From: Nitrospirota bacterium
GTDB taxonomy: Bacteria; Nitrospirota; Thermodesulfovibrionia; Thermodesulfovibrionales; SM23-35
NCBI GenBank assembly: GCA_040757475.1
Contig: JBFLWW010000002.1
Span: 23,818-87,817, forward strand
Reading direction: 5' to 3'
DNA length: 64,000 nt
Part shown: positions 5,790-63,734 of the stretch, piece by piece
Layout of the letters: each line of letters starts with the position of its first letter
How positions within the stretch are numbered: position 1 is the first letter of the stretch
The notes under the pieces: generated by a model
What the model was told of the DNA's origin: nothing
What the model saw: the letters and a program-made list of their open reading frames with translations, nothing else
Database searches by the model: none
Made by a program: the position numbers and the translations under genes

Positions 5790-6028
5790 CGTTTTATTTT
5801 CTTTAACAGTTGGCGTCTTTTTCCATAAAGATATTCATCATGCCTTAGTGCAGTATCTTTGAAACTGCTTCCCCCTATTCCTATGATGCTCAGAGCTTTC
5901 TTAGTCGCATCATCCATCTCGGCTTTTCTCAAGATGGTTAGTTCAACTTTCTCGTGTTCGCCCAGACGTACCTTTTTAATTGGCTTAAAAACCCCGTTTT
6001 CATATATAGCCTCTACGGTTTTTGGCAC
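5786..6028 (-). CDS. Antitoxin (DUF104/AF2212-like N-terminus) paired with VapC
   Basis: 80 aa. [16 protein letters not shown]...VELTI is the DUF104-type antitoxin motif. GGAGG lies upstream of the GTG start. It is translationally coupled to the PIN gene. Confidence 0.6.
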
Positions 6029-6102
6029 CTGTATTCCGCCTCCTTTCTTAAAAATTAGTTTATTTTATCATAAATACCTGCTGTGAGTTATACAGAAAAA
6101 AT

Positions 6103-11436: not shown

Positions 11437-13638
11437 ATGACTATGAAAGCGTTTAAAAAGCGTGTTATCTATTATCTGTTATCTGTTATTTTAATTTCAC
11501 TGTTCACTGTTCACTGTTCACTGTTCACTGTTTATGCTGAGACAAAAAAGGCTGATGAGAAGGTTACATTCAATTTCGTGGATGTTGACCTCGCCACTAT
11601 AACAAAATTTATAAGTGATATTACAGGGAAGAATTTTATCTTTGATGAGAGGGTGAAAGGCAAGATAACAATAATAGCCCCTTCTAAATTAAGTGTTGAC
11701 GATGCATACAATCTTTTCACATCCGTGCTTGAGCTTAAAGGCTTCACAGTTGTCCCATCAGGTGTTGACGCATATAAGATTATCCCTGCTATAGAGGCAA
11801 AACAGCGTGGGATACAGCTTGGTGCTGAGAGAGTGCCTGTTAATGAAAGCTACATAGCAAGACTTCTACCTTTAAAACATATATCCTCGGATGATGCCCT
11901 GAGATTTCTCCAACCCCTTATCTCAAAGGATGGTCATATATCCACATTCGGCCCTGGCAACCTTCTCCTTGTTGTTGACTCTGGACTGAATATTGAAAAG
12001 ATTCTTTCAATTATTGAGGCTATAGACCAGCCGTCAGCAAGAGAAGAACCTGAAATTGTCTTTCTCAAACATTCAAGCGCAGATGCCGTTGCAAAGATTC
12101 TCAATGAGGGTTTTGGAAAGGAAAGGACAAGGGCTGTTCCAGGCCAGCCACCACATATTGAGGAAGGCAGGGCAGTGGCTGACCAGAGGCTCAATGCTAT
12201 TGTCCTCTTTGGAGACAAAGGTGTCAGGGAATTCATGAAGGGACTGATAGCCCTGTTAGATGTGCCTTCGCCTGAGGCCCAGGGAAGGATAAATGTCTAT
12301 TTCCTTGAAAATGCTGATGCAACCGAGCTTGCAAAGGTCCTTGAGGGTATGCTGAAGGGTGCACAACCTGCAAGACAGGTCGCCCCTCCTGCACCGGGTG
12401 CTCCGCCAGTCACTCCCTTTGAGGCAGTTGGCGGCATAACCATAACACCTGATAAGGCCACAAATTCCTTTGTGATAGTTGCCTCACCAGCAGACTATCA
12501 GAACCTCTCACAGATTATAAAACAGCTTGATAAAAGGAGAAGACAGGTATTTGTTGAGGCAATGATTGTTGAGGCATCAATTGATAAGCTGAGGGAGTTG
12601 GGTGCAAAATGGAGAGCAACAGGAAGACATGAGGGAGAGCCTATAGTAATAGGCGGTTTCGGAACCATGAACCAGTCAGCACTTCAGTCTGTGATTTATG
12701 GGCTGACAGGTCTTACAGCTGGAGGAATGGGAAATTTCCTTGATATAAAGCTTACCACGCTTGATCCAACTACTGGTAAAGTTACAGAAGGCACTGTCAC
12801 AGTGCCTGGTTTTGCAGCCATCTTTAGCCTCAGTGAGTTTAAGGATGCTGTAAATGTCCTTTCAACCCCCCAGATTCTCACATCTGATAACAAAGAGGCA
12901 GAGATTGTGGTCGGTGAGAATGTTCCATTCATATCAAAAAGGGAAGCTGACCCTGCAAGAACCCTGTCTATGTTCACCACTATTGAAAGAAAGGATGTCG
13001 GAATCACGCTTAAAATAACCCCACAGATAACTGAAGGAGACTATGTCAAGCTTGATATATATCAGGAGATATCAGCGCTGGTATCTCCACCTGCTGGGCT
13101 TGAAGAGGCCATTCTTACAGGCGTGGGACCTACTACAACAAAACGCTCAACAAAGACATCGGTTGTGGTAAAGGACAGGCAGACTGTTGTTATCGGAGGC
13201 CTCATGCAGGAAAGGGATGCGGAGAACCTGACAAAGGTTCCGCTTCTTGGAGATATACCACTTCTTGGATGGCTTTTCAAATATAAGAGTGTCTCAAAGA
13301 AAAAGACAAACCTGCTTGTATTTCTTACACCTCATGTTGTTAAAAAGGCAGAAAATCTTGCGCAGATTACAAGAGATAAAGAGAAGGAGTTTGCAAGGGT
13401 GGAAAAGCAGTATAAAGAAGGAGAGCTTTTAATAAAGTTCAAAGAAGGGGTTTCAGAGGAGAGAGCACTATCAATAATCTCTGAAAAGGGTGCATCAGTT
13501 ATAACATTTATCGAGAACATTAAGGTCTATCATATAAAACTCAGAAAGAGGCAGGATGTAGAAGATGCCCTGAAGGAATTTTCTGAGATGCCAGAGATTC
13601 AATATGCAGAGCCGAATTATGTAATTAAAATAAAGTGA
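11437..13638 (+). CDS. gspD: Type II secretion secretin GspD with an extra C-terminal subtilase-propeptide (I9)-like domain
   Basis: 733 aa with N0-N3 domains and a secretin core (VPLLGDIPLLGWLFKYKS). The C-terminal 72 aa are not typical of secretins. The signal peptide is encoded by a heptamer array. Confidence 0.85.
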   Translation: MTMKAFKKRVIYYLLSVILISLFTVHCSLFTVYAETKKADEKVTFNFVDVDLATITKFISDITGKNFIFDERVKGKITIIAPSKLSVDDAYNLFTSVLELKGFTVVPSGVDAYKIIPAIEAKQRGIQLGAERVPVNESYIARLLPLKHISSDDALRFLQPLISKDGHISTFGPGNLLLVVDSGLNIEKILSIIEAIDQPSAREEPEIVFLKHSSADAVAKILNEGFGKERTRAVPGQPPHIEEGRAVADQRLNAIVLFGDKGVREFMKGLIALLDVPSPEAQGRINVYFLENADATELAKVLEGMLKGAQPARQVAPPAPGAPPVTPFEAVGGITITPDKATNSFVIVASPADYQNLSQIIKQLDKRRRQVFVEAMIVEASIDKLRELGAKWRATGRHEGEPIVIGGFGTMNQSALQSVIYGLTGLTAGGMGNFLDIKLTTLDPTTGKVTEGTVTVPGFAAIFSLSEFKDAVNVLSTPQILTSDNKEAEIVVGENVPFISKREADPARTLSMFTTIERKDVGITLKITPQITEGDYVKLDIYQEISALVSPPAGLEEAILTGVGPTTTKRSTKTSVVVKDRQTVVIGGLMQERDAENLTKVPLLGDIPLLGWLFKYKSVSKKKTNLLVFLTPHVVKKAENLAQITRDKEKEFARVEKQYKEGELLIKFKEGVSEERALSIISEKGASVITFIENIKVYHIKLRKRQDVEDALKEFSEMPEIQYAEPNYVIKIK
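11464..11533 (+). repeat. Heptamer lattice, 10 units (4x GTTATCT-type, 1 transitional unit, 5x ACTGTTC), encoding the gspD signal peptide
   Basis: Read directly from the sequence. It is in register over 70 nt and translates VIYYLLSVILISLFTVHCSLFTV. Confidence 0.9.
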
Positions 13639-16769: not shown

Positions 16770-17205
16770 AGCGGGATTCACGCTCCTTGAGCTGATAATT
16801 GTTATATTTATACTCTCACTTGTAATGGCTGTGGTCTTTCCATCTTTTTATGGAATTGTAGATGGAAGGCTTAAATCAGAGTCAGGTAAGATTGCGTCTT
16901 TATTAAGGTATCTGAATGATAGCGCAATCTCCAGAAAAGAAACATTTATACTTAAGATTAACCTTGATAGTAATACCTTCTTATGGGAAGGTCCTGATGG
17001 TAAAAGGTCAGAAAGTTTCAATGGTCTTTTAGATATTTTTACAACCTCAACAGGAAGTGTCTCAAGGGGTGAGGTGATACTTTCTTTCGGTCCCCTCGGC
17101 ATTCAGGAGAATCTCAGAATCCACCTGAGGGATAAAGATAAGGAAATGGCGGTTACGCTTAACCCGATGAGTGGAAGGGTAAAAATAATTCAAAGTTCAA
17201 AATGA
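16738..17205 (+). CDS. gspH: Minor pseudopilin GspH
   Basis: The leader is MQTLRTGSYSKAG/FTLLELIIV. It overlaps the gspG 3' end. Its C-terminal IQSSK* and its stop codon lie inside a repeat element. Confidence 0.6.
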   Translation: MQTLRTGSYSKAGFTLLELIIVIFILSLVMAVVFPSFYGIVDGRLKSESGKIASLLRYLNDSAISRKETFILKINLDSNTFLWEGPDGKRSESFNGLLDIFTTSTGSVSRGEVILSFGPLGIQENLRIHLRDKDKEMAVTLNPMSGRVKIIQSSK

Positions 17206-17265
17206 AAAATTCAAAATTAAGGAATTCCAAAATTTTTAATTTTAAATTTTTAATTTTAAATTCCC
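17189..17265 (+). repeat. 77-nt AT-rich inverted heptamer element (11 units, core TTAAGGAATTCC), copy 1
   Basis: TTCAAAG TTCAAAA TGAAAAA TTCAAAA TTAAGGA ATTCCAA AATTTTT AATTTTA AATTTTT AATTTTA AATTCCC. It spans the gspH stop and gspI start. Confidence 0.9.
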
Positions 17266-17609
17266 GCCCACATCAGGTGAGCGGGTTCGCCCTCCTCGAG
17301 GTTATGATTGCAGTTGGCATTGTTGGGGCCCTCCTTGTTACCCTCATATATACATTGAATTATAATCTTGGCATTGCTGAAAGACACGAGACTATTACTG
17401 TTGCAGCTATACTTGCAAGAGATAAAATTTCCGAGATAGAGAAAATGCCTGTTGATTCCAGAGGAGAATTCCCTGAACCTTATTCTGATTATCAATATGA
17501 GACCACAGTCAAAGAATCCGTATATCCTAACATATCAGAAATATCAGTTGTTGTTAGAAAAGGGAAAGAAGAGGTTAAACTCAGCGAATTAATTCAAAGT
17601 GCAAAATGA
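17202..17609 (+). CDS. gspI: Minor pseudopilin GspI (repeat-encoded long leader)
   Basis: ATGA overlap with the gspH stop. The cleavage motif is QVSG/FALLEVMIAVGIV. The first ~22 codons lie in the 77-nt repeat element. Confidence 0.6.
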   Translation: MKNSKLRNSKIFNFKFLILNSRPHQVSGFALLEVMIAVGIVGALLVTLIYTLNYNLGIAERHETITVAAILARDKISEIEKMPVDSRGEFPEPYSDYQYETTVKESVYPNISEISVVVRKGKEEVKLSELIQSAK

Positions 17610-17669
17610 AAAATGCAAAATTAAGGAATTTCAGAATTTTTAATTTTGAATTTTCAATTTTAAATTTCC
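17593..17669 (+). repeat. 77-nt AT-rich inverted heptamer element, copy 2 (about 88% identical to copy 1)
   Basis: TTCAAAG TGCAAAA TGAAAAA TGCAAAA TTAAGGA ATTTCAG AATTTTT AATTTTG AATTTTC AATTTTA AATTTCC. It spans the gspI stop and gspJ start. Confidence 0.9.
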
Positions 17670-31267: not shown

Positions 31268-32281
31268 ATGAGAAAGTCATTAGTCATTAGTCATCAGTCA
31301 TCAGTCATAATAAGGAAAAGATTATTATTTATTGTAGTCTTTTTACTTCTCACTTCTCACTTTTCACTTTCAACTTTGTTTGCTGATGAGATCCATTCCC
31401 GTGCCGCCCTTGTTATGGATGCGTCAACAGGAAAGGTGCTTTATGCAAAAAATCTAAACCTTAAGCTTCCTCCTGCGAGTACAGCAAAGCTGATGACTGC
31501 TATTGTGGCAATTGAAAAGGCAGACCTCAATGATGTTATTACGATAAGCAAAAGAGCAGTCAGTGTTGCTCCAACAAAGGCTGGATTTAAGGCAGGAGAA
31601 AAGGTGACAATTGAGACGCTTCTTTATGCAGCGCTTCTCAGGTCTGCAAATGATGCTGCTACAGCCCTTGCAGAAGCTGTAGCTGGTTCAGAAGCTAAGT
31701 TTGTCCAGCTTATGAATAGAAAGGCGATTGCTATTGGAGCAAAGGATACAAAATTCATAAACCCACATGGACTTCCTGGCCCTGACCAGTATATTACAGC
31801 CCATGACCTTTCAAAGATAATGAGACATGCGCTCAAATATCCCAGACTAAAAGAGATCATCGGGACTCGTGTTGCAGAGGTCTCAATAAAAAGGGGGAAG
31901 TCCATATCTCTTGAAAACACAAACAGACTTTTGTGGGTTGACGAATACCTTGTGGGTGGTAAGACAGGATATACCCGTAAAGCAAGGCATTGTTTTGCAT
32001 GTGCCTGTAAACGCAAAAAGAATACAGTTGTAGTTGCCCTCCTCGGCAGTCCAAGCAGGGAAAACCTATGGAAAGAAGCAGAATTACTGATTGATAAGGG
32101 ATTCCAGATAATGGCAAATAAAGAAGAACCTGTCATCTATTTTACAAAGGCAGATTATGATGCACTTAATGTGAAGAAGGCATCCTATAAGAAAAGTTCA
32201 AAGTTCAAAAGTTCAAAGTTAAAGGCTTCATCACTTAAGTATAGGGTTGCAAAGAAAGGTGAGGATGGGAATAAAGGATAA
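31268..32281 (+). CDS. dacA: D-alanyl-D-alanine carboxypeptidase (S11, PBP5/6-like) with repeat-encoded signal peptide and tail
   Basis: Contains SxxK (ASTAK), SxN (SAND) and KTG (GKTGYT). ATG 31268 follows AAGGTGAGGTGA. Confidence 0.8.
   Translation: MRKSLVISHQSSVIIRKRLLFIVVFLLLTSHFSLSTLFADEIHSRAALVMDASTGKVLYAKNLNLKLPPASTAKLMTAIVAIEKADLNDVITISKRAVSVAPTKAGFKAGEKVTIETLLYAALLRSANDAATALAEAVAGSEAKFVQLMNRKAIAIGAKDTKFINPHGLPGPDQYITAHDLSKIMRHALKYPRLKEIIGTRVAEVSIKRGKSISLENTNRLLWVDEYLVGGKTGYTRKARHCFACACKRKKNTVVVALLGSPSRENLWKEAELLIDKGFQIMANKEEPVIYFTKADYDALNVKKASYKKSSKFKSSKLKASSLKYRVAKKGEDGNKG
31274..31308 (+). repeat. Heptamer array (3x AGTCATT, 2x AGTCATC register) at the dacA N-terminus
   Basis: aagtcat tagtcat tagtcat cagtcat cagtcat, which translates KSLVISHQSSVI. 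Confidence 0.9.
31340..31374 (+). repeat. Heptamer array (TTCTCAC/TTTTCAC) forming the dacA signal-peptide h-region
   Basis: tttttac ttctcac ttctcac ttttcac tttcaac, which translates FLLLTSHFSLST. Confidence 0.9.
32193..32221 (+). repeat. AAAGTTC array in the dacA C-terminal tail
   Basis: aaagttc aaagttc aaaagttc aaagtta, which translates SSKFKSSKLK. Confidence 0.85.
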
Positions 32282-33674
32282 AAAAGTAACCGTAGTAGGC
32301 CTTGCCAGGAGCGGCGTAGGCGCAGCAAACCTTTTATCAGAACTCGGAGCTGATGTAACAGTAACAGACAAAAAAACAGAATATGAATTAAAGGATTTTG
32401 TAAAAAAGCTTAATCCTTCTATAAAACGTGCATTAGGAGGACACCCGGAAGATATATTCACATCAGCTGATATGATAGTCGTCAGCCCTGGTGTTCAGCT
32501 TGACACTCCACCCATTACTAATGCAAAAGCAAAAGACATCCTAATAATTGGCGAGCTTGAACTTGCATATCAGATAATAAGTTCAAAGTTCAAAATTCAA
32601 AGTTCAAAGTTTCCAAAATTTTTAGCAGTAACAGGTACAAATGGGAAGTCTACTACTACAACATTACTCGATCTTATGCTAAAGAAATGTGGGTTCGAGA
32701 CCCTTTTAGGAGGGAATATAGGGAATGCCCTGACCTCGTCACTTCTCACTTCTCACTTCTCACCTGATTACATTGTTGCTGAGGTATCGAGCTTTCAGCT
32801 TGAGTCAATAAAGGATTTCAGGCCAAAGGGTGCTGCTATCCTTAACATTACTCCTGATCACCTTGACCGATACTACTCACTCGAAGAATACAGAGATGCA
32901 AAGGCAAAGATATTTGAAAACCAGCAGGAGGACGATTTTCTGGTAATTAATGCAGATGACCCTGAAACAATGAAAGTTCAAAGTTCAAAGTTCAAAGTTC
33001 AAAGTGAAAAACCAAAAGTCTTTTACTTTAGCCGTAAGAAAGAGGTCAAGGGTATTTATTTCAAAGATGGACGAATCTATTGTAATTTCCCTGACTCCTC
33101 ACTCCTCACTCCTCACTTCCCACTTATAAAGGCTGATGAGATAAAGATAAAGGGTGTCCATAACCTGGAGAATGCCATGGCTGCTTCGGCCATGGCTCTC
33201 CTTGCAGACTGCCCCCTAAAGGCAGTGATAGATTCCTTGAGAGAATTTCCTGGTCTTGAGCACAGGCTTGAATTTGTCAGGGAGATAAATGGCATCCGAT
33301 ACATCAATGATTCAAAAGGGACTAATGTAGGTGCAGTCATCAAGTCACTTGAAAGCTTTACGAAGCCGATTGTTTTAATCGCGGGTGGAAGAGATAAGGC
33401 AGGAGATTTTTCGTTATTGGGACATTTAGTGAGAGAAAGGGTGAAGGCAATTATATTAATTGGTGAGGCAAGTGAAAAGATAAAAAAAGCCCTCGGTGAC
33501 CTTACAGAGACAGTGATGGCAAAAGACTTAAGAGATGCTGTAATAATATCACATAACAAGGCAGTGAATGGCGATGTAGTCCTGCTTTCGCCGGCATGTG
33601 CAAGTTTTGACATGTTTATGGACTTCGAGGACAGAGGAAGACAGTTTAAAGATATTGTATGGAGTTTGAAATGA
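32265..33674 (+). CDS. murD: UDP-MurNAc-L-Ala--D-Glu ligase MurD with four in-frame repeat arrays
   Basis: Contains VVGLARSG, VTGTNGKSTT, EVSSFQLE and DSKGTN. The start is probably ATG 32265, overlapping the dacA end. Confidence 0.9.
   Translation: MGIKDKKVTVVGLARSGVGAANLLSELGADVTVTDKKTEYELKDFVKKLNPSIKRALGGHPEDIFTSADMIVVSPGVQLDTPPITNAKAKDILIIGELELAYQIISSKFKIQSSKFPKFLAVTGTNGKSTTTTLLDLMLKKCGFETLLGGNIGNALTSSLLTSHFSPDYIVAEVSSFQLESIKDFRPKGAAILNITPDHLDRYYSLEEYRDAKAKIFENQQEDDFLVINADDPETMKVQSSKFKVQSEKPKVFYFSRKKEVKGIYFKDGRIYCNFPDSSLLTPHFPLIKADEIKIKGVHNLENAMAASAMALLADCPLKAVIDSLREFPGLEHRLEFVREINGIRYINDSKGTNVGAVIKSLESFTKPIVLIAGGRDKAGDFSLLGHLVRERVKAIILIGEASEKIKKALGDLTETVMAKDLRDAVIISHNKAVNGDVVLLSPACASFDMFMDFEDRGRQFKDIVWSLK
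32581..32611 (+). repeat. GTTCAAA array in murD (before the P-loop)
   Basis: gttcaaa gttcaaa attcaaa gttcaaa, which translates SSKFKIQSSKF. Confidence 0.9.
32739..32766 (+). repeat. TCACTTC array in murD (after GNIGNAL)
   Basis: 3x tcacttc plus tcacctg, which translates SLLTSHFSP. Confidence 0.9.
32973..33007 (+). repeat. AAAGTTC array in murD
   Basis: 4x aaagttc plus aaagtga, which translates KVQSSKFKVQSE. Confidence 0.9.
33093..33125 (+). repeat. CACTCCT array in murD
   Basis: gactcct cactcct cactcct cacttcc cactt, which translates DSSLLTPHFPL. Confidence 0.9.
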
Positions 33675-34864
33675 AATATGATAAGTGGATGCTTTTTGTC
33701 ACAATTCTCCTTATAGGTTTTGGTGCACTTATGATATACAGCTCCACATCTGTTATCACACCTGTGCTTGCAAAGAAAAATGTCACAGAATTTTATTATT
33801 TCAAAAGGCATATGTTTACGATGCTTATCGGTTTTGGGATTATGTTTTTTGCCTACAGGCTAAAACTTTCTACAATTAAGAAGATGGCCGTGCCCCTCCT
33901 GATTTTTTCTTTTGTATTACTAATATTAGTTTTTGTGCCTGGCATAGGTGTCTCTGCCAATAATGCAAGGAGGTGGATAAGACTCTGGCCCTCTACATTC
34001 CAGCCATCAGAGCTTGTTAAGCTCTCCATGGTCATATTTCTTGCAAAGTATATGTCAATGTTAGAGTATAGAACAGACAGCCTTGTCTCTTTTATAAAAC
34101 CTGTTCTTGTAATGGCGGTATTTCAGGTGGTTTTTCTCAAACAGCCTGATTTTGGGTCTGTGATAAGCCTTATGCTTCTGACATTTATAATGTTATTTCT
34201 TTCAGGCATAAGGCTCAGATATCTTGCATATCTGTCAGTGCTTGCCCTGCCTATAATATACAAACTTATCATGGAGCCTTACCGCCTCAAAAGGGTTATG
34301 GCATTTCTCGATCCGTGGAAAGACCCTCAGGGAAGCGGATTCCAGCTTGTACAATCTTTTATAGCCCTCGGCAGCGGAGGGCTAACAGGCGTTGGACTTG
34401 GAAAGTCCAGACAGAAATTAGCCTTCCTACCCGAATCCCATACGGATTTCATATTCTCTCTAATCGGGGAGGAACTCGGCTTTATAGGTGTGCTGGTCGT
34501 TATAACGCTTTTCTTGTTCTTGTTTATCAAGGGGATATCCATTGCAAACAGGTCAAGGGACAAGTTTGTCTATTATCTTGCATTCGGACTTTCACTGATG
34601 ATCTCTTTGCAGGCGCTAATTAATTTTGCAGTTGCAACAGGCATGGTACCAACAAAAGGTTTGCCACTGCCGTTTATTAGCTATGGGGGTTCATCTCTCT
34701 TTGTGAATATGGCTGCTATAGGGATACTGCTTAATATATCGAAGGGAGAGGAGAACAGAAAGATTGCAGATATAGACCCAAAAATGATTGTGAGGAGGAA
34801 GGCCCGATTAAAAATTCAAAATGCAAAATTCAAAAATCAAAATTACGGAATTCCTTTATTTTGA
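33659..34864 (+). CDS. ftsW: Peptidoglycan glycosyltransferase FtsW (SEDS) with repeat-encoded C-terminal tail
   Basis: SEDS motifs are present (RWIRLWPSTFQPSE, LPESHTDFIF, PLPFISYGGSS). Confidence 0.9.
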   Translation: MEFEMKYDKWMLFVTILLIGFGALMIYSSTSVITPVLAKKNVTEFYYFKRHMFTMLIGFGIMFFAYRLKLSTIKKMAVPLLIFSFVLLILVFVPGIGVSANNARRWIRLWPSTFQPSELVKLSMVIFLAKYMSMLEYRTDSLVSFIKPVLVMAVFQVVFLKQPDFGSVISLMLLTFIMLFLSGIRLRYLAYLSVLALPIIYKLIMEPYRLKRVMAFLDPWKDPQGSGFQLVQSFIALGSGGLTGVGLGKSRQKLAFLPESHTDFIFSLIGEELGFIGVLVVITLFLFLFIKGISIANRSRDKFVYYLAFGLSLMISLQALINFAVATGMVPTKGLPLPFISYGGSSLFVNMAAIGILLNISKGEENRKIADIDPKMIVRRKARLKIQNAKFKNQNYGIPLF

Positions 34865-34888
34865 ATTTTTAATTTTAAATTTTAAATT
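34808..34888 (+). repeat. AT-rich inverted heptamer element (core TTACGGAATTCC) at the ftsW 3' end
   Basis: About 12 units in register. The ftsW stop (34862-64) lies inside the element. The left arm translates RLKIQNAKFKNQNYGIPLF*. Confidence 0.9.
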
Positions 34889-41509: not shown

Positions 41510-41538
41510 TCCCCCCTTCTGTTATCTATTAATCTTAA

Positions 41539-41657
<119 letters not shown>

Positions 41658-41685
41658 TTTTTTATAGAAATAACATCAGAATATT

Positions 41686-41736
41686 AAAAATTGCAAATTG
41701 AAAATTTTAAATTTCAAATTTAAAATCTAAAAATTC
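41686..41736. repeat. AAATTNN heptamer array between 5S rRNA and tRNA-Ala
   Basis: aaattgc aaattga aaatttt aaatttc aaattta aaatcta aaaattc. Confidence 0.8.
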
Positions 41737-41812
41737 TGGTGGAGGTGAACGGGATCGAACCGATGACCTCCTGCTTGCAAAGCAGGCGCTCTCCCATCTG
41801 AGCTACACCCCC
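41737..41812 (-). tRNA. tRNA-Ala (anticodon UGC), CCA encoded
   Basis: Reads GGGGGTGTAGCTCAGATGGGAGAGCGCCTGCTTTGCAAGCAGGAGGTCATCGGTTCGATCCCGTTCACCTCCACCA. The G3:U70 Ala identity pair is present. Confidence 0.95.
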
Positions 41813-42918: not shown

Positions 42919-43569
42919 ATGCTTATTCGTATGCCTTTTACAGTTTGGTTTTTTTCACTTCTCACTTTTCACTTTTCACTTTTTGCTGTCTCTTTTGCTG
43001 CCTCATCCGTTGAGGAGGACATCGCAAGAATCCAGAAGGCTTATGATAGCATTAAAGACATTAAGGGAAGTTTTGTACAAAAGAGCCATATAAAGGACCT
43101 GAAGCGAACAGATACTTATAAAGGAGAATTCTTTATAAAGAGGCCACAGAAGATGAGGTGGGAATATAAAGGCGATAAAGCTCAGGAGGTAATCATCAAC
43201 AACAAGGATATCATAATATACCAGAAGGAAGAAAGGCAGGCGTTTAGAGGTAAATTTGATAGAGATACATATGGTCAGGCACCCATAGCCCTCCTCAGCG
43301 GATTCAGAGACATACAGAAGGAGTTTGTTGTATCAAAGAAAAATAGCACTCTTCTGCTTAAACCAATAAGGCCGATGGGAAATATCCTGTCTATTAAGAT
43401 AGAGCTTTCTGATAATAAATTCCCTATCAACTCATTTACCATAAACGACACGCACTCAAATTTGATAAAGATTATGCTGAAGGGCGTGAAGATAAATACA
43501 GGCTTGAAGGATTCTATTTTCGAGATTTCATTACCAGAAGACACGAAAATAGTGGATGAATTTCTTTAG
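42919..43569 (+). CDS. lolA: LolA-like periplasmic lipoprotein carrier
   Basis: Signal peptide, then IKGSFVQKSHIKDLKRTDTYKGEFFIKRPQKMRWEY, a LolA-type pattern. The signal-peptide h-region is a heptamer array. Confidence 0.6.
   Translation: MLIRMPFTVWFFSLLTFHFSLFAVSFAASSVEEDIARIQKAYDSIKDIKGSFVQKSHIKDLKRTDTYKGEFFIKRPQKMRWEYKGDKAQEVIINNKDIIIYQKEERQAFRGKFDRDTYGQAPIALLSGFRDIQKEFVVSKKNSTLLLKPIRPMGNILSIKIELSDNKFPINSFTINDTHSNLIKIMLKGVKINTGLKDSIFEISLPEDTKIVDEFL
42951..42985 (+). repeat. C(T)TTTCA heptamer array forming the LolA-like signal-peptide h-region
   Basis: tttttca cttctca cttttca cttttca ctttttg, which translates FFSLLTFHFSLF. Confidence 0.9.
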
Positions 43570-48122: not shown

Positions 48123-49214
48123 GTGATGTTAATCCTTGGAATAGATACCTCCTGTGATGATACATGTGCGTCAGTCGTCGAAGACGGGGTCAGAATAATC
48201 TCCAATATCGTCTCGACCCAGACAGAGATACATAAGAAATACGGTGGCATTGTGCCTGAGCTTGCATCAAGAAGACACATAGAGATGATATGGCCTGTTG
48301 TTGATGAGGCAGTGAAAGGCGCAGGGATTGAACCTGAAGACCTGTCTGCTATAGCAGTATGCCATGGTCCAGGACTGATAGGTTCCCTCCTCATAGGCTG
48401 TTCCTTTGCAAAGGCGATATGCTATTCAAAAAATGTCCCTCTTGTTACTGTAAACCACCTTGAGGGTCATATATTCTCTTGTTTTTTAAGGGAAGGGGGT
48501 TTCATGGAGGAAACTCCGTTTCCCCCATGCACTCCTGAATTTCCATTCCTATCCCTCATCGTCTCAGGAGGCCACACATGCCTCTACAGGGTTGATGGCT
48601 TTGGTAGATATAGAGAACTCGGCAGAACACGGGATGATGCTGCAGGTGAGGCATATGACAAGGTCTCAAAACTCCTTGGTCTCGGATACCCTGGCGGCCC
48701 TGTTATAGATAAACTCGCACAGGATGGAAACCCTGATGCAGCAGATTTCCCGAGGCCGTATCTGCCTGAATCCTTTGATTTCAGCTTCAGCGGACTTAAA
48801 ACCGCAGTGCTGAATTTCGTAAAAACAACAGTCATTAGTCAACAGTCATTAGTCAGTAGTCAAAAAACCAGTGACCAATGTCCAATGACCAATGACCAAT
48901 CCCACTTGTCACTGGCGGATATTGCTGCATCATTTCAGGCATCTGTAGTAGATGTACTTGTAAAGAAAACAGAATGGGCAGTAAAAAAAGAACGGATAAA
49001 AAGGGTTGCCCTCTCAGGTGGAGTCTCTGCAAACAGTGAATTGAGAAAAGGGATGAAGGGAATGGGTGATGCGATAGGAGTGGAGATATTTATACCTCCT
49101 GTATCATTGTGCACAGATAATGCTGCCATGATTGCTGGAGCTGGATATCATCATTTCAATGCCGGCAATATTGCAGGGCTTGATCTCAATCCACAGGCGT
49201 ATCTGCCGCTATAA
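48123..49214 (+). CDS. tsaD: tRNA N6-adenosine threonylcarbamoyltransferase TsaD with an 84-nt in-frame repeat insertion
   Basis: Contains ILGIDTSCDDT, HLEGH, SGGHT and FSFSGLKT. The ORF is 363 aa versus about 335-340 aa typical. Confidence 0.9.
   Translation: MMLILGIDTSCDDTCASVVEDGVRIISNIVSTQTEIHKKYGGIVPELASRRHIEMIWPVVDEAVKGAGIEPEDLSAIAVCHGPGLIGSLLIGCSFAKAICYSKNVPLVTVNHLEGHIFSCFLREGGFMEETPFPPCTPEFPFLSLIVSGGHTCLYRVDGFGRYRELGRTRDDAAGEAYDKVSKLLGLGYPGGPVIDKLAQDGNPDAADFPRPYLPESFDFSFSGLKTAVLNFVKTTVISQQSLVSSQKTSDQCPMTNDQSHLSLADIAASFQASVVDVLVKKTEWAVKKERIKRVALSGGVSANSELRKGMKGMGDAIGVEIFIPPVSLCTDNAAMIAGAGYHHFNAGNIAGLDLNPQAYLPL
48827..48910 (+). repeat. 12-unit (84 nt = 28 codons) composite inverted heptamer element inside tsaD
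   Basis: aacagtc attagtc aacagtc attagtc agtagtc aaaaaac cagtgac caatgtc caatgac caatgac caatccc acttgtc. Confidence 0.9.
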
Positions 49215-49216
49215 AT

Positions 49217-49244
49217 AGTTTCTTGAGTTACAAACCAAGAAACT
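49217..49244 (+). terminator. Hairpin after tsaD
   Basis: AGTTTCTTG (49217-25) pairs with CAAGAAACT (49236-44) around a 10-nt loop. There is no U-tract. Confidence 0.3.
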
Positions 49245-49271
49245 CAATGAACTCAACAAACTCAATAAACT
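49241..49271 (+). repeat. 9-nt tandem repeat (AACTCAATG / AACTCAACA / AACTCAATA / AACT)
   Basis: Read directly from the sequence. It lies just upstream of a TTGTAA-18-TATAAT promoter (49271-49300) for thiD. Confidence 0.6.
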
Positions 49272-50082: not shown

Positions 50083-51426
50083 ATGCCGAAGGTAAAGACC
50101 TTTTATCAATGCCAGTCCTGTGGCTATACAAGCCCTAAGTGGCTCGGTAAGTGCCCTGACTGTGGGACATGGAATAGCCTTGTTGAAGAAAGGAAAGAGG
50201 CGGTTAGGAGTCTCGGCAAATCCGAACCAATATCCCTGAGTTCAATCACAGGTGAATACAAACAGAGAACATCCACAGGGATAAAAGAGCTCGACAGGGT
50301 TTTAGGAGGTGGGGTCGTCGCTGGTTCTGTTGTTCTCGTTGGAGGTGACCCTGGCATAGGAAAGTCCACACTGCTAATACAGGCAATCTCAGGCCTTTCA
50401 AAAAAATGCGGAAAGGTTCTTTATGTATCAGGTGAAGAATCTCCCGAGCAGATAAAGCTCAGGGCAGATAGACTCTCGATTAATTCATCCGAGATAATCC
50501 TGCTTTCAGAGACTTCACTCGAAGGCATTGTTGATACTGCCTCAAAAATCTCTCCAAAGGTAATGGTCGTGGATTCTATCCAGACTGTCTATACACAGGA
50601 ACTCGTCTCTGCCCCGGGCTCTGTAGGCCAGGTAAGGGACTGTGCAACAAAATTAATGCTCTTTGCAAAAAGGTCAGAAGTCCCTGTGTTCCTGGTCGGC
50701 CATGTCACAAAGGAGGGGGCAATCGCTGGTCCACGTGTACTTGAACATATTGTTGACACAGTCCTTTATTTCGAAGGCGACAGGGGATATTCATATCGAA
50801 TACTTCGGACCGTAAAAAACCGCTTCGGCTCAACAAACGAGATAGGGGTCTTTGAGATGTCTGATTCCGGTCTTCGAGAAGTGGAAAACCCGTCAGAGTT
50901 ATTCATTTCAGAAAGACCATTGAATGTTTCAGGTTCAATAGTTGTTGCCAGCCTTGAAGGCACAAGACCTATTATGGTGGAGATGCAGGCACTTGTCTCA
51001 CCGACTAACTTCGGTATACCTCGTAGAACAACCATAGGTGTTGACTTTAACAGGGTAAACCTCCTCGTTGCTGTGCTTGAAAAAAGGGCAGGATTCCACT
51101 TAGGAGGTATGGATATATTTGTAAATGTTGTTGGTGGACTCAGGATAATCGAGCCTGCTGTTGACCTCGGTATTGCTACAACAATAGCCTCATCTCTCAG
51201 AGAAGTATCTGCAGACCCCAGAACCTTTGTCTTTGGCGAGATTGGCCTTTCAGGGGAGATCAGGGCAGTTACTCAGGCAGAACAAAGACTGAAGGAGGCA
51301 TCAAAGGTAGGGTTTAAGCAGGCTGTTATACCTCTGGCTAACCTTGAAAAAATAAAAAACAATTTCGGATTAAAAATAACAGGAGTAAAAGATATTGAAG
51401 ACGGTCTCACAGCTCTCCTCCATTAA
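50083..51426 (+). CDS. radA: DNA repair protein RadA
   Basis: Zinc finger CQSCGYTSPKWLGKCPDCGTWNS, Walker A GDPGIGKST, the KNRFG motif and a Lon-like C-terminal domain. Confidence 0.9.
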   Translation: MPKVKTFYQCQSCGYTSPKWLGKCPDCGTWNSLVEERKEAVRSLGKSEPISLSSITGEYKQRTSTGIKELDRVLGGGVVAGSVVLVGGDPGIGKSTLLIQAISGLSKKCGKVLYVSGEESPEQIKLRADRLSINSSEIILLSETSLEGIVDTASKISPKVMVVDSIQTVYTQELVSAPGSVGQVRDCATKLMLFAKRSEVPVFLVGHVTKEGAIAGPRVLEHIVDTVLYFEGDRGYSYRILRTVKNRFGSTNEIGVFEMSDSGLREVENPSELFISERPLNVSGSIVVASLEGTRPIMVEMQALVSPTNFGIPRRTTIGVDFNRVNLLVAVLEKRAGFHLGGMDIFVNVVGGLRIIEPAVDLGIATTIASSLREVSADPRTFVFGEIGLSGEIRAVTQAEQRLKEASKVGFKQAVIPLANLEKIKNNFGLKITGVKDIEDGLTALLH

Positions 51427-51434
51427 AACTAAAT

Positions 51435-51525
51435 TAGAAATGAGAAATGGGAAATGGGAAGTAGGAAATGGGCGGTTAAGATTTTACTTCTTACTTCTCA
51501 CTTCTTACTTCTTACTTCTCACTTT
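51435..51525 (+). repeat. 13-unit composite inverted heptamer element (GGAAATG-type arm / TTACTTC-type arm) downstream of radA
   Basis: tagaaat gagaaat gggaaat gggaagt aggaaat gggcggt taagatt ttacttc ttacttc tcacttc ttacttc ttacttc tcacttt. Confidence 0.9.
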
Positions 51526-52099
51526 ATTCTCCTGTGCAGCACCACGGGTGGAGATACCCGTATATGAAGGAGTTGATGTAAAGGATGTCCTTTCTTCGAA
51601 AAACCGTATTTCAGCCATAGAGACCACATTTTCCATCATCTTTGAAAAAAATGATACTGAGATAAGAGGAGATGCAACACTGAATATCTCCCGTAATGGA
51701 AACCTGAGCCTGCGTGTCTATTCCCTTGGATTTCTTGCACTTGAACTCACATCTGATAATGGCATTATAAAAAGCAATCCGAGTCTTGACAGGAACAAAA
51801 ACGCAATCCTTACATCCGGCCTGAAAGACTGCCTTTTCTGGTGGGATATAAAAGACTTTGAGATTGATGAAAGAGATGATACCTACATCCTTAAAAATCT
51901 TTCGAGAAAGATATGGATAGACAGAAAAACAATGCTTCCCCGGAAACAGATAATCTCCCTTGAAGATGGCAGAGAATTAAAGGTGTATTATGAAGGTTCT
52001 GAGAAGGAAGGTGATATCTGGTATCCTGCAAAAATGAGGATAGAACTCTCTAAATATTCTGTGACATTGAGGATTAAGGGTATATCATTCACTATTTAA
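51440..52099 (+). CDS. Outer-membrane lipoprotein, LolB/DUF4292-like (putative); signal peptide wholly repeat-encoded
   Basis: Starts MRNGKWEVGNGRLRFYFLLLTSYFLLLTLFSC with an LFSC lipobox. The family call is weak. Confidence 0.45.
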   Translation: MRNGKWEVGNGRLRFYFLLLTSYFLLLTLFSCAAPRVEIPVYEGVDVKDVLSSKNRISAIETTFSIIFEKNDTEIRGDATLNISRNGNLSLRVYSLGFLALELTSDNGIIKSNPSLDRNKNAILTSGLKDCLFWWDIKDFEIDERDDTYILKNLSRKIWIDRKTMLPRKQIISLEDGRELKVYYEGSEKEGDIWYPAKMRIELSKYSVTLRIKGISFTI

Positions 52100-56612: not shown

Positions 56613-56622
56613 ATATACTAAA

Positions 56623-56709
56623 TGCAAAATTCAAAAAGCAAAATTCAAAAATCCAATTCAAGATTTAAAATTTCCTTAATTTTGCATTTTTCATTTTTAA
56701 TTTAAAATT
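56623..56709. repeat. AT-rich inverted heptamer element in the glyA-nrdR spacer
   Basis: Positions 56673-56696 are the exact reverse complement of 17604-17627 (24 nt). Confidence 0.9.
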
Positions 56710-61344: not shown

Positions 61345-61357
61345 TAATGAAACATCA

Positions 61358-61484
61358 ATTCAAAATGCAAAATGCAAAATTAAAAATTTCAGAGCAAAAT
61401 TCAAAATTAACCACAATCTTAACTATGCATGTTCTTTTAATTTTGAATTTAAATTTTGCATTTTTAATTTTAAATTTTAAATTT
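61358..61484. repeat. Largest AT-rich inverted heptamer element (127 nt) in the lysS-lolC spacer
   Basis: The left arm is caaaatg/caaaatt units (61358-61409). The loop is 61410-61435. The right arm is aattttg/aatttta units (61436-61484). Confidence 0.85.
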
Positions 61485-61489
61485 GTTAG

Positions 61490-62719
61490 ATGAACCTCCC
61501 ATATCATTTATTCATAGCTCTCAGGTACCTTAAAGCCAAGAAAAGACATAGAGGCATTTCTGTGAACACAATTATTTCCACAGGAGGTGTTGCAGTTGGT
61601 GTCATGGCACTCCTCGTTGTCCTGTCTGTAATGAGCGGATTCCATGAAGATCTTCAGAAAAAGATACTCGGAGTAAGGGCACATGTGATCATACTCACAC
61701 ATAAAGGCATGATGTCTGGATATAAAGATGTAATCGAAAAAATAAAGGAGGAAGAGAATATCATATCATCTGCCCCATTTGTCCATGGTCAGGTGATGGC
61801 ATCATTCGGCAGAAGGGCTCATGGCGTCTTTCTGAGAGGCATAATGCCTGAAATGGAGATAAAGACAACAGAGATATTAAGATACATCAAGGAAGGCAAT
61901 CTCGAAGACCTTACGACAAAAGATGGAATCCCTGGTATTATACTCGGAAGGGAGCTCACAAATATCCTCGGTGTATTTAAAGGAGATATCATTAATATTG
62001 TATCACCTGCTGGAGAGATAGGCCCACTCGGAATGCTTCCGAAGGTCAAACAGTTCAGGGTTGCTGCAATATTTGAGGTCGGAATGTTTGAATATGATTC
62101 GAACCTCGTCCTGACAGACATTAGGCCCGCTCAGGAATTCTTCGGCATAAAGGAAGATATAACAGGCATTGAACTCAGGCTTAATGATATATATAAGGCA
62201 CCTATTGTCAGGGAGAGAATACAGAAAAAACTGGAGTTTCCTTTCTATGCAATAGACTGGATGCAGATGAATAAGAACCTGTTTTCAGCCCTGAAATTAG
62301 AGAAATTCGCCATGTTCATAATACTAATCCTCATAATCCTCGTGGCATCATTTAATATAGTAAGCACACTTATAATGAATGTGATAGAAAAAAGCAGAGA
62401 GATAGCAATCTTAAAGGCAATGGGTGCAACAAACAAAGGCATCATGGCCATCTTCATGCTTCAGGGTTTATTCATCGGGCTCTTTGGTACGATTATAGGA
62501 GTGAGCGGTGGATATTTACTGAGTTATATTTTAAACACATATCAAGTTATCAAACTGCCTCCTGATATTTACTATCTGAGCCATCTTCCTGTAAAGATGA
62601 AGCTATTTGACTTCATAACAGTATCCCTTTCTGCAATCATGATAAGTTTTCTTGCGACTATTTACCCTGCATGGCAGGCAGCAAGGATCAATCCCGTAGA
62701 GCCATTGAGATATGAGTAA
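61490..62719 (+). CDS. lolC: Lipoprotein-releasing ABC transporter permease LolC/E
   Basis: 409 aa with a MacB-like periplasmic domain and an FtsX-type C-terminal 4-TM bundle. Confidence 0.8.
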   Translation: MNLPYHLFIALRYLKAKKRHRGISVNTIISTGGVAVGVMALLVVLSVMSGFHEDLQKKILGVRAHVIILTHKGMMSGYKDVIEKIKEEENIISSAPFVHGQVMASFGRRAHGVFLRGIMPEMEIKTTEILRYIKEGNLEDLTTKDGIPGIILGRELTNILGVFKGDIINIVSPAGEIGPLGMLPKVKQFRVAAIFEVGMFEYDSNLVLTDIRPAQEFFGIKEDITGIELRLNDIYKAPIVRERIQKKLEFPFYAIDWMQMNKNLFSALKLEKFAMFIILILIILVASFNIVSTLIMNVIEKSREIAILKAMGATNKGIMAIFMLQGLFIGLFGTIIGVSGGYLLSYILNTYQVIKLPPDIYYLSHLPVKMKLFDFITVSLSAIMISFLATIYPAWQAARINPVEPLRYE

Positions 62720-62724
62720 GAAAG

Positions 62725-63021
62725 ATGTTTAAGCTCATAAAAAGAGTTATATGTCTTCTGCTAATTATTGGAGTTCTCTTCATTACCCTTTCATTATGGC
62801 AGGGCGGAAAGCCTTTCAGGTGGGTCGGCAAAAAATCAGAAAAGGCAGGAGAAGTTATTAAAGAGAAAAGTGAAGCAATAAGCAAAGAGGCAGACAGAAT
62901 AAAAGAAAAGACAGAACAGATTAAGGATGCAACAAAAAAGGTGACTAAAGGCATTGAGAAAACAGGTGAAAAGATAAAAGGTATCAGAGGGAAAAAGGAT
63001 GAAAATGAAGCAAAGAAGTGA
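62725..63021 (+). CDS. Small membrane-anchored Lys/Glu-rich protein
   Basis: 98 aa. An N-terminal TM (VICLLLIIGVLFITLSL) is followed by about 65 residues of K/E-rich low-complexity helix. It is coupled to lolC and lolD. Confidence 0.5.
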   Translation: MFKLIKRVICLLLIIGVLFITLSLWQGGKPFRWVGKKSEKAGEVIKEKSEAISKEADRIKEKTEQIKDATKKVTKGIEKTGEKIKGIRGKKDENEAKK

Positions 63022-63734
63022 AAGGGGCAAAGGTGATTGAGATAAAGGATTTAAAAAAATCCTTTATTACAGATGCTGGTGAGCTTCAGGTACTGAAGGG
63101 CATTGATCTTTCAATAAAGGAAGGAGAAATAGTTGGGATAGTCGGTGCATCAGGTGTAGGGAAAAGTACGCTTCTGCATATCTTAGGTGCACTGGATAGG
63201 CCGACCTTCGGCAAGGTCTTCTATAATAGCACTGATATTTTCTCCCTTGATGAAGATTCACTCGCCTCCTTCAGAAACAATACTATCGGCTTTGTCTTTC
63301 AATTCCATCATCTACTCCCTGAATTTACAGCCATTGAGAATGTTATGATGCCAGGACTTATCAATGTAAGTTCAAAAGTTCAAAAGTTCAAAAGTTCAAA
63401 GTATAAAGAAATCCTTGAAAGGGCAGGAAGACTTCTCGATGAGCTGGGTTTATCCGAAAGAAAAAGACACAGGCCAGGAGAACTATCCGGAGGTGAACAG
63501 CAGAGGGTTGCGGTTGCAAGGGCACTTGTCCTTGAACCAAAGGTTGTCCTTGCAGACGAGCCCACAGGTAATCTTGACACAGCAACAGGTGAGGAATTAT
63601 TTAACCTCCTTATCAACCTTAATAAAGAAAAAAGGATTACATTCGTCATTGTCACACATAATGAGACCCTTTCAAATCACTGCCACAGGGTTCTCAAAAT
63701 GGTGGATGGGAGAATAGTTGCAGGTTTGGGGTAA
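63018..63734 (+). CDS. lolD: Lipoprotein-releasing ABC transporter ATP-binding protein LolD with an in-frame repeat insertion
   Basis: Walker A GASGVGKST, signature LSGGEQQRVAVARAL, Walker B VLADEPTGNLD. Confidence 0.9.
   Translation: MKGAKVIEIKDLKKSFITDAGELQVLKGIDLSIKEGEIVGIVGASGVGKSTLLHILGALDRPTFGKVFYNSTDIFSLDEDSLASFRNNTIGFVFQFHHLLPEFTAIENVMMPGLINVSSKVQKFKSSKYKEILERAGRLLDELGLSERKRHRPGELSGGEQQRVAVARALVLEPKVVLADEPTGNLDTATGEELFNLLINLNKEKRITFVIVTHNETLSNHCHRVLKMVDGRIVAGLG
63371..63401 (+). repeat. TTCAAAAG octamer array (3x 8 nt plus one 7-nt unit) inside lolD
   Basis: ttcaaaag ttcaaaag ttcaaaag ttcaaag, which translates SSKVQKFKSSK. Confidence 0.9.

Follow-up and report, generated by a model that had tools for sequence, protein, structure and literature searches.

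A heptamer-repeat hairpin in frame within the predicted signal peptide of a LolB-like lipoprotein gene overlapping radA in a Nitrospirota genome

The hairpin at the radA/lipoprotein junction

The DNA analysed here, hereafter the window, is a stretch of 64,000 nucleotides (nt) from a Nitrospirota bacterium (assembly GCA_040757475.1, contig JBFLWW010000002.1) in which radA is followed, with an overlap, by a gene encoding a putative lipoprotein. A hairpin built of tandem heptamers, the element of this study, lies at the junction of both genes, starting at position 51431, 5 nt past the radA stop codon (51424-51426), and is read in the frame of the lipoprotein gene (Table 1). Period-7 arrays of the AAATGAG/GAAATGG type were found by Tandem Repeats Finder (TRF) at 51431-51460 and 51437-51472, and a TTACTTC array with 5.9 copies and 91% matches, or 100% if read as a 21-mer repeated twice, was found at 51484-51524 (TRF score of this TTACTTC/TCACTTC right-arm array, 68-82). 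The arms are 73% complementary over 37 nt (inverted repeat I1), and the RNA of the element has a minimum free energy (MFE) of -33.4 kcal/mol (z = -4.4), none of 200 shuffled sequences being equally stable. The stem is rich in A/U and in G-U pairs, and its first base, 51442, falls within the ATG codon at 51440-51442.

The heptamer array and hairpin at 51431-51524, first described in an earlier note on this DNA, are therefore confirmed, as are the arm translations given there (MRNGKWEVGNGRLR and FYFLLLTSYFLLLTLF, then S-C), which were recovered from the translated open reading frame (ORF), and the pairings, which when written out comprise six Watson-Crick pairs plus one G-T pair for GAAGTAG:TTACTTC, and one A-C mismatch with one or two G-T pairs for GAAATGG:TYACTTC. 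The same note placed thirteen units on one lattice directly after the radA stop codon. Cutting the sequence every 7 nt from 51435 does render thirteen units (TAGAAAT GAGAAAT GGGAAAT GGGAAGT AGGAAAT GGGCGGT TAAGATT for units 1-7, and TTACTTC TTACTTC TCACTTC TTACTTC TTACTTC TCACTTT for units 8-13), but units 6 and 7 are the loop or spacer rather than repeats, and since the second unit type can be set in any phase, a common lattice says little; we rejected it as a meaningful property.

The reading frame of the lipoprotein gene, a point overlooked in the earlier note, is open upstream to a TTG codon at 51395, 32 nt inside radA, so that the last 32 nt of radA are dual-coding. In the orthologous loci, genes with RadA-type Pfam domains (Zn_ribbon_LapB, AAA_25, ChlI) show the same overlap, of 32-35 nt, and the Shine-Dalgarno sequence is kept at the same position, as AGGAG or GGGG, in seven related loci (L001, L002, L003, L124, L147, L152 and L153). 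The codon preceding TTG 51395 is ATA, where many relatives have ATG, and the TTG start is common to the closest relative, which is free of the element (locus L001, protein P0002), and to an element-bearing one (L124, P0045).

In that closest genome (GCA_016212245.1, locus L001), which is 93-95% identical in DNA over 8.6 kb, the gene has the same TTG and the same AGGAG and encodes the signal MKTVLRLFSLSIILFLLSC, with no repeats and no element. The segment lacking a counterpart there measures 115 nt in the window versus 31 nt in L001, a net gain of 84 nt, equal to 12 heptamers or 28 codons. A homologue search of 5.8 billion proteins rendered 401 homologues, labelled Thermodesulfovibrionales or Nitrospirae, and the figures for orthologs refer to the best 120 of these 401, whose mature part is 60-90% identical to the window protein. 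About 110 of the 120 carry an ordinary lipoprotein signal of 19-20 amino acids, MLKTVSRLFLLSTILFLFSC, followed by |AAPRVE, and nearly all have an LFSC or LLSC lipobox. The window stretch (L)KTVSQLSS, upstream of the element, is a remnant of the ancestral n-region, and its LFSC is the ancestral lipobox. The replacement of a non-repeat signal peptide, which the earlier note had proposed looking for among orthologs, is thus borne out. Given the empty site of L001 and the ancestral TTG and lipobox, the element is shown, by comparison of these sequences, to have been inserted in frame into an existing signal peptide, or to have replaced part of one, and not to be the source of one; the right arm took the place of the h-region and the left arm extended the n-region. 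Of the claim that one element encodes an entire signal peptide, the part concerning the h-region holds, FYFLLLTSYFLLLT coming from the right arm, whereas the lipobox is ancestral, and the supply of the n-region by the left arm was not substantiated: the ancestral TTG and its Shine-Dalgarno sequence are intact, conserved and in frame.

The DNA of relatives provides an allelic series with five states at the radA/lipoprotein site. An ordinary signal is found in L001, L148, L152 and L153. L002 (ATG start) and L124 (TTG start) have both arms but lack an internal ATG and are read from the ancestral start through the element; their signals extend 41-42 amino acids to the Cys (e.g. MLKAVSRLFSLKNKLELINGKWELKNLISYFSFLILSLLFSC). 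The window represents a third state, with both the ancestral TTG and the in-frame ATG 51440 made by a GAAATGA unit. In L125 the left arm has lost 1 nt, so that the ancestral frame ends at the TGA in GGGAAATGAAA, and an ATG of a repeat unit (GAAATG), overlapping that stop (ATGA), opens MKLKSLISYFSFLILLSLFSC; the L125 signal is therefore encoded by the element all the way up to the lipobox, and the scenario of the earlier note is realised in a relative. As a side observation, the broken ancestral frame of L125 (190-300) constitutes a 21-codon upstream ORF, and its TGA/ATG overlap is a classic arrangement for translational coupling. Finally, only the right arm is present in L003 (TYATTTC units) and L147 ((TTACTTC)x5). 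Every allele form combines a net-positive n-region with an uncharged run of 16-19 amino acids and matches the PROSITE-type lipobox pattern. The sister pairs L152/L002 and L153/L125 differ in whether the element is present, and in both the insert is located at the radA stop codon; the empty site reads CTTAG|C and the filled one CTTAAGAATAAG..., and no clear duplication is seen. When the mature domains are arranged in a rough neighbour-joining tree, the element-bearing alleles are placed in at least four clades, each beside element-free sisters.

Two tests for 7-residue periodicity in the N-termini of orthologs were discarded. The strict one (at least 5 of 7 identical over 14 amino acids) lacks power, since the arrays span about 10 amino acids, and in a relaxed one, based on tripeptides at distance 7, the outcome was dominated by conserved motifs that are not phylogenetically independent (LFL..LFL; ITKFISDITKK); neither test serves as evidence.

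Table 1. Features of the radA/lipoprotein junction and array-bearing N-termini elsewhere in the window
Feature	Positions	Strand	Remark	Basis
radA	50083..51426	+	447 amino acids; stop TAA 51424-51426	ORF
Shine-Dalgarno AGGAG	51381..51385	+	9 nt 5' of TTG 51395	sequence
Ancestral start TTG	51395..51397	+	in frame with element and lipobox	ORF 51395..52099
Segment without counterpart in L001	51408..51522	+	break at window 51407/51523, L001 3989/4021	blastn
Left (purine-rich) arm	51431..51472	+	units GAAATGG/GAAATGA/GAAGTAG; encodes KLEMRNGKWEVGNG	TRF, inverted repeat I1, translation
In-frame ATG within GAAATGA unit	51440..51442	+	14 nt past radA stop; 5' foot of hairpin	sequence
Loop/spacer	51473..51483	+	encodes GCGGTTAAGAT; unpaired apex and short inner stem	MFE structure
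Right (pyrimidine-rich) arm	51484..51524	+	(TTACTTC/TCACTTC)x5.9; encodes present h-region YFLLLTSYFLLLT	TRF, translation
Lipobox L-F-S-C	51524..51535	+	Cys codon 51533-51535; ancestral, outside element	orthologs
Mature LolB-like (LolA/LolB superfamily) lipoprotein domain and stop	51536..52099	+		AlphaFold2, Foldseek
GspD arrays	11463..11532	+	(TGTTATC)x3.9 at 11463-11489; (TTCACTG)x5.3 at 11496-11532	TRF
AT-rich heptamer hairpin over pseudopilin gene junction	17187..17262	+	leader MKNSKLRNSKIFNFKFLILN...	
AT-rich heptamer hairpin over next pseudopilin junction	17603..17667	+	27-amino-acid leader of type II secretion system J (T2SS-J) pseudopilin	
DacA N-terminus	31275..31371	+	(AGTCATY)x4.9 encodes KSLVISHQSSVII; (TCACTTC/T)x4.6 encodes part of h-region LLLTSHFSL	TRF
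LolA N-terminus	42952..42983	+	(TTTTCAC/TCACTTC)x4.6 encodes FFSLLTFHFSLF	TRF, translation

The export signal and the host protein

The sequence T-L-F-S-C of the window protein matches the PROSITE-type pattern {DERK}(6)-[LIVMFWSTAG](2)-[LIVMFYSTAGCQ]-[AGS]-C; the F at position -2 is outside the strict [ASTVI] of [LVI][ASTVI][GAS]C and is the norm in this family, LFSC being present in most orthologs. The h-region consists of an uncharged run of 17 amino acids with a mean Kyte-Doolittle value of 1.9, and a helix is predicted at residues 12-31 in an AlphaFold2 model. The net charge of the n-region is +3 in the form starting at ATG 51440, which has two Lys or Arg residues among its first seven, and +5 in the form starting at TTG 51395. 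The Cys is residue 32 or 47, respectively, as compared with Cys41-42 in L002 and L124, which have no alternative start. Whichever start applies, the h-region is encoded by the right arm. The lipobox Cys is invariant in 46 aligned orthologs (alignment A1), in line with the export signal proposed in the earlier note: the family is one of exported lipoproteins, with a fold closest to LolB, and homology lends good support to the view that the window protein is exported and lipid-anchored.

The AlphaFold2 model of the lipoprotein has a predicted local distance difference test (pLDDT) value of 88.5, and its top five Foldseek matches in the PDB are all LolB (9rlg_L, 8cm1, 1iwm_A, 3wjv and 3wjt; E values from 7e-9 to 9e-8, target TM-scores of 0.59-0.64). 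The only Pfam match was LolA_like (E = 5.5e-4, 20 bits, below the 30-bit cut-off), while the NCBIfam search rendered no match at E <= 1 and the sequence search of the PDB none. The host protein, whose predicted fold is an unclosed beta-barrel of the LolA/LolB type, is therefore LolB-like by fold only, with no match to a curated LolB sequence family. The product of 51395-52099 can be regarded as a candidate outer-membrane receptor of the Nitrospirota Lol pathway. Other members of a Lol set are found in the window, namely LolA (42919-43569; Pfam, E = 1e-26), a LolC/E-like permease (61490-62719; FtsX and MacB_PCD domains) and a LolD-like ATPase (63018-63734).

Period-7 arrays and related hairpins at other loci

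The 64-kb window contains 24 period-7 arrays, versus zero or one for each of the periods 5, 6 and 8-12 and none in shuffled sequences. Of the 21 array clusters, 11 are no more than 40 nt away from a gene start or stop, where 3.6 would be expected (P = 0.0002), and the pure arrays located inside genes are mostly stop-free in the sense orientation only. No second copy of the left arm of the lipoprotein gene was found in the window. A scan of JGI metagenomes with the pattern GGGAAATGGGAA-N(4-34)-TYAYTTCTYAYTTC, which forces 12 nt, rendered 21 hairpins of the type (GGGAAAT)n-loop-(TYAYTTC)n at unrelated loci, none of them beside radA or the present lipoprotein gene. In 15 of the 21 the stop codon of a long ORF lies within a few nt of the end of the element. 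One of them, L129, shares AAGAAATGGGAAATGGGAACTAA[G/A]AAA with L124, a stretch extending past the 12 nt forced by the search and preceded in both by TTAAGA..TAA, which includes the host stop codon.

The right-arm unit alone is far more widespread: more than 120 stretches, from many phyla, contain (TYACTTC)x3, where an estimate made by hand predicts about two by chance. The matches listed include Gemmatimonadota, Bacteroidota, Acidobacteriota, Verrucomicrobiota, Planctomycetota and others, as well as the Cyanobacteria Calothrix, Pleurocapsa, Rivularia and Okeania. Among 131 listed (TYACTTC)x3 arrays, an exact (GAAGTRA)n complement is located upstream in eight and downstream in none, which indicates that the purine-arm-first polarity is general. 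A general role of these arrays in N-terminal signals outside the clade found no support, since in a crude ORF analysis they mostly fall in short ORFs or intergenic DNA. The 34-amino-acid peptide encoded by the element, compared with 1.84 billion protein representatives, matched one unrelated repetitive protein of 2766 amino acids; the query is too short and biased for this comparison. From similarity and position, the simplest reading is that the element is a copy of a dispersed family of tandem-heptamer hairpins usually found at gene 3' ends.

Arrays also overlie other hydrophobic N-termini of the window. The earlier note derived the h-regions of GspD, DacA and a LolA-like protein from the same source; arrays do coincide with the hydrophobic N-termini of these three proteins, that of dacA lying at 31339-31371, but the units differ. 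Those of gspD encode the signal h-region VIYYLLSVIL..FTVHCSLFTV in the absence of a complementary arm, and array-free GspD signals occur in relatives, among which there are array-type signals (LVTCHLSL, SLFTFHF, FILHPSS) as well as ordinary ones such as MRNLRTVFAGIALLLSVLIVSSAFPETKK. Two hairpins of the form (AATTCAA)n ... (AAATTTT)n make up most of two unusually long prepilin leaders, including that of the T2SS-J pseudopilin, in which the N_methyl motif covers amino acids 25-49 and 27 amino acids precede G|FTLIE.

In-frame arrays or hairpins are found, moreover, at three sites in MurE (25086-25334, 26241-26346), at four in MurD (32579-33117) and in TsaD, the hairpins with open frames being those of MurE (25250-25345, 26230-26355), TsaD (48815-48910) and the lipoprotein gene itself. 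Signal peptides are therefore permissive sites for arrays but not the sole ones. AT-rich heptamer hairpins also fill the intergenic gaps after ftsW, glyA and lysS (34807-34888, 56620-56703 and 61357-61484), and a further array (41683-41732) is located between a 5S rRNA gene (41538-41654, minus strand) and a tRNA gene (41740-41812, minus strand).

Interpretation, alternatives and known systems

Taken together, these data make us favour, with good confidence, the view that a hairpin of the dispersed family lies in frame inside an ordinary lipoprotein signal, its right arm replacing the h-region. The 91-nt hairpin would have landed, or stayed, directly after the radA stop codon. The lipoprotein gene begins 32 nt inside radA and, since its signal is dual-coding or lipobox everywhere but in the h-region, the element would have come to lie in frame inside the signal peptide. 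Translation would most likely proceed from TTG 51395, yielding a 46-residue signal before Cys47 (MKTVSQLSSIKTKLEMRNGKWEVGNGRLR + FYFLLLTSYFLLLTLFS + C) to be processed by Sec, Lgt and LspA as usual, and ATG 51440 may also serve, e.g. by re-initiation after termination of radA. Export would survive because a signal needs just positive charge followed by 10-20 uncharged hydrophobic residues, and a purine arm followed by a pyrimidine arm would encode both in that order.

The unit length and the distribution of stop codons are in line with such tolerance. Since 7 is coprime to 3, any array of at least three units (21 nt) passes through every one of the three frames, and in genes only units free of stops would persist. 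TTACTTC is translated as LLLTSYF and TCACTTC as SLLTSHF, both hydrophobic and stop-free, whereas their exact complements, GAAGTAA and GAAGTGA, contain stops, which would account for the imperfect match of the left arm, GAAATGG, whose pairing includes A-C and G-T positions. GAAATGG itself renders EMGNGKW, polar and stop-free, and contains an ATG; the left arm of the window encodes a polar, net-positive stretch. Being stop-free in the sense orientation only, an in-frame copy would always encode a polar and then a hydrophobic segment, that is, the order of n-region and h-region. The hairpin itself probably arose as a by-product of repeat dynamics acting across the genome, namely slippage plus spread or conversion, and would not be required for export.

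Several points weigh against this interpretation. We infer export from simple rules and from orthologs, and the assignment to a dispersed element is based on sequence similarity and position. No terminal inverted repeats or clear target-site duplication were seen at the element, and no transposase-like gene was found among the window proteins scanned with Pfam, a scan that included no dedicated transposase search. The scatter of element-bearing alleles among clades could reflect insertion on several occasions, recombination, or an old insertion that was lost many times. The ancestral h-region carries TTACTT-like strings (L148: TTTTTACTTAGT), from which slippage could have built up the right arm at this very site. 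Further points concern the start. The old PROSITE rule locates the lipoprotein Cys within about residues 15-35 of the precursor, a range that Cys32 of the ATG form fits and Cys47 of the TTG form does not, and ATG 51440 is the start annotated by NCBI: the 219-amino-acid protein from this codon is 100% identical to P0001 ('MAG: hypothetical protein AB1348_01010').

With ATG 51440 as the start, both the n-region and the h-region would come from the element, and the stretch from TTG to ATG would be mere radA 3' sequence. Besides the annotation, the conventional length and charge of that signal (Cys32, two Lys or Arg in the first seven residues, net +3) speak for this possibility, as do the radA stop codon 14 nt upstream, which makes termination and re-initiation conceivable, and the precedent of L125, where a repeat-unit ATG took over after the ancestral frame was broken. 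Nevertheless, there is no Shine-Dalgarno sequence in the 20 nt before ATG 51440, a stem of -33 kcal/mol starts at 51442, inside the codon, the ancestral TTG, still in frame, and its AGGAG have been conserved intact, and L002 and L124, which bear a homologous element without an internal ATG, indicate that a long read-through signal is viable. We consider this alternative possible but doubtful, and TTG 51395, alone or together with ATG 51440, the likelier start in the window. It can also be the case that the hairpin is a functional RNA or DNA structure of the radA 3' end, such as an mRNA stabiliser, an attenuator or a protein-binding site, its translation being a tolerated side effect. The abutment of 15 of the 21 metagenomic copies on stop codons, the window copies after glyA, lysS and ftsW, the strong, non-random fold (z = -4.4), the retention of the hairpin in four alleles and its insertion at the radA stop codon in L002 and L125 would all agree with such a function. 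This we regard as a serious but less likely alternative. Most orthologs lack the hairpin, some alleles keep the right arm only (the fold of L003 amounts to -1 kcal/mol), and termination at this point would leave the overlapping gene downstream untranscribed. No terminator-like site (a G+C-rich stem plus a T-run) was detected in 51200-51800, and Rfam 15 rendered sub-threshold matches to eukaryotic miRNA precursors alone (at most 28 bits, versus cut-offs of 60-135). Strand preference is inconsistent as well: a preference for sense-strand RNA, considered on the basis of the G-U versus A-C asymmetry, was rejected because it varied between loci, the antisense RNA of the TsaD hairpin folding at -36.5 kcal/mol and the sense one at -19.2 kcal/mol.

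A contingency locus, in which gain or loss of one heptamer would switch the lipoprotein frame on and off in the manner of the opa CTCTT repeats, is very unlikely. A unit that is not a multiple of 3 in the region coding for a leader peptide is the architecture of opa (PMC3960869), array content differs between genomes that are 93% identical, and L125 is frameshifted in the left arm; on the other hand, with 5-6 units the arrays are short, each allele seen has an open frame leading to the lipobox, and similar arrays occur in the essential MurE, MurD and TsaD, where switching would be lethal. The frame of L125 is shifted by a 1-nt deletion, for which a new start compensates, and not by a change in unit number, and the truncated orthologs P0075 and P0092, taken at one point for frameshifted 'off' alleles, have intact signal peptides in their DNA and are gene-calling errors with miscalled starts. 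Their JGI models begin at the internal Met of 'EMPVYEG' (L147 516-640; L148 1429-1500), skipping the signals; P0108, with the same N-terminus, may be a similar miscall, and start-codon miscalling in this family looks systematic. Finally, it is hardly credible that the element reflects an error of assembly or annotation, or the decaying N-terminus of a pseudogene: the window does belong to a metagenome-assembled genome, and repeats are easily misassembled, but homologous elements, all with open frames, are found at the same site in independent NCBI, JGI and Logan assemblies, and the mature domain is 60-90% identical to the 120 listed orthologs and has a confident predicted fold.

A wider proposal is that the heptamer hairpins form an actively spreading or converting family that acts as a set of ready-made signal or leader cassettes. 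Since the purine-then-pyrimidine polarity is fixed and identical on both strands, a stop-free copy in frame would encode a charged and then a hydrophobic segment. If this were so, export signals would have been replaced (the window, L002 and L124) and start codons moved (L125), new exported or membrane-anchored proteins might arise, and the swaps of hairpins at identical sites would reflect an undescribed mechanism of site-directed insertion or conversion. We consider this proposal speculative and improbable.

Several known repeat systems resemble the element, which is a member of none of the opa, Rickettsia palindromic element (RPE) or cyanobacterial and Beggiatoaceae heptamer systems. In opa genes of Neisseria, the CTCTT repeat encodes the hydrophobic core of the leader. 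These coding pentamers lie in the leader-peptide region (PMC3960869) and share with the element a pyrimidine-rich unit that is not a multiple of 3, in the leader-coding 5' region of an exported outer-membrane protein. They differ in forming long arrays with no complementary arm, which switch frame about 1e-3 per generation, in a host-adapted pathogen, whereas here heptamers in 5-6 copies form a paired inverted array, no switching has been seen, and heptamer repeats are present in intergenic DNA and cytoplasmic enzymes as well. RPEs are in-frame insertions in protein-coding genes (PMC10969869), a review that makes no mention of signal peptides. They are small palindromes located in many unrelated genes, housekeeping ones included, where they are in frame, translated and tolerated, like the copies in MurE, MurD, TsaD, DacA and the lipoprotein; however, RPEs measure about 100-150 bp and have a conserved family consensus and a conserved peptide, in contrast to the variable heptamer arrays described here, whose unit sequence is locus-specific and turns over between close relatives.

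Known heptamer tandem repeats include the STRR sequences. TAACTGA repeats have been described in cyanobacteria, Beggiatoaceae and Bacteroidetes (PMC4679880), and heptameric simple sequence repeats have been found to be abundant (PMC4692102). The abundance of period 7, the location near gene boundaries, the presence of the same unit in distant phyla, and translatability in one orientation only, because of stop codons, are common to those repeats and ours, but they are described as mostly intergenic direct repeats of a single unit, and paired inverted hairpin arrays and in-frame use in signal peptides are absent from the descriptions in those papers. Repetitive extragenic palindromes (REPs) and the bacterial interspersed mosaic elements (BIMEs) are likewise dispersed hairpins just 3' of stop codons, between co-directional or convergent genes; REPs differ in being extragenic and untranslated and in lacking heptamer periodicity. 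REPs are associated with RAYT transposases. Conserved GTAG/CGTC heads are ascribed to them in one source (PMC3733652). The literature searched described no inverted, paired heptamer arrays that provide signal-peptide sequence, and contained nothing on Nitrospirota heptamer repeats or on repeat-encoded signal peptides beyond opa.

The allelic series from wild populations indicates that a hairpin of simple repeats can take the place of a signal peptide's hydrophobic core, stretch the n-region to about 30 residues and even shift the start, while lipobox and mature protein are conserved. It constitutes a natural experiment on how little sequence information signal peptides need, and a plausible route to new export signals. 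It also explains annotation errors in metagenome-assembled genomes, in which starts are miscalled (NCBI, JGI) and signal peptides missed. Moreover, it points to a lineage, within the Nitrospirota and Thermodesulfovibrionales, where essential enzymes have been invaded by period-7 hairpins that are quickly exchanged at fixed sites.

The rapid swapping of different hairpins at identical sites in genomes that are 93% identical is the most intriguing loose end. In tsaD, window 48826-48900 and L001 1377-1465 have an in-frame hairpin at the same position with unrelated arms (CAACAGT/CATTAGT ... ACCAATG in the window; GAAGTTA.. ... ..TTAACTTC, -40.8 kcal/mol, in L001), a case of fast turnover at a fixed site between genomes about 93% identical. 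In dacA, (AGTCATY)x5 at 31275-31308 is replaced in the sister L151 (about 6010-6045) by (AAGTTWA)x5 on the same lattice, the A-G-T positions alone being conserved in each unit, a concerted replacement of all units; the sister array pairs with (TCACTTT)n while avoiding TGA, whereas that of the window does not pair. In the alignment of the window with L151 (91-96% identical) each break is a repeat site, and at the MurE and MurD sites L151 has either other inserts (GC-rich palindromes, a (CGCCTCA)n hairpin) or none.

Some repeats of the window depart from the heptamer type. A 33-nt palindromic insert with GC ends, GGGGGTTTCATGGAGGAAACTCCGTTTCCCCC, is present in tsaD at 48500-48533, where it encodes FMEETPFPPCT, and is absent from L001. 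Exceptions to period 7 are an octamer array, (AAGTTCAA)x4.1 at 63368-63400, in frame in the gene of the LolD-like ABC ATPase (63018-63734), and a 9/18-mer array (AAACTCAAT) at 49232-49271, between tsaD and thiD.

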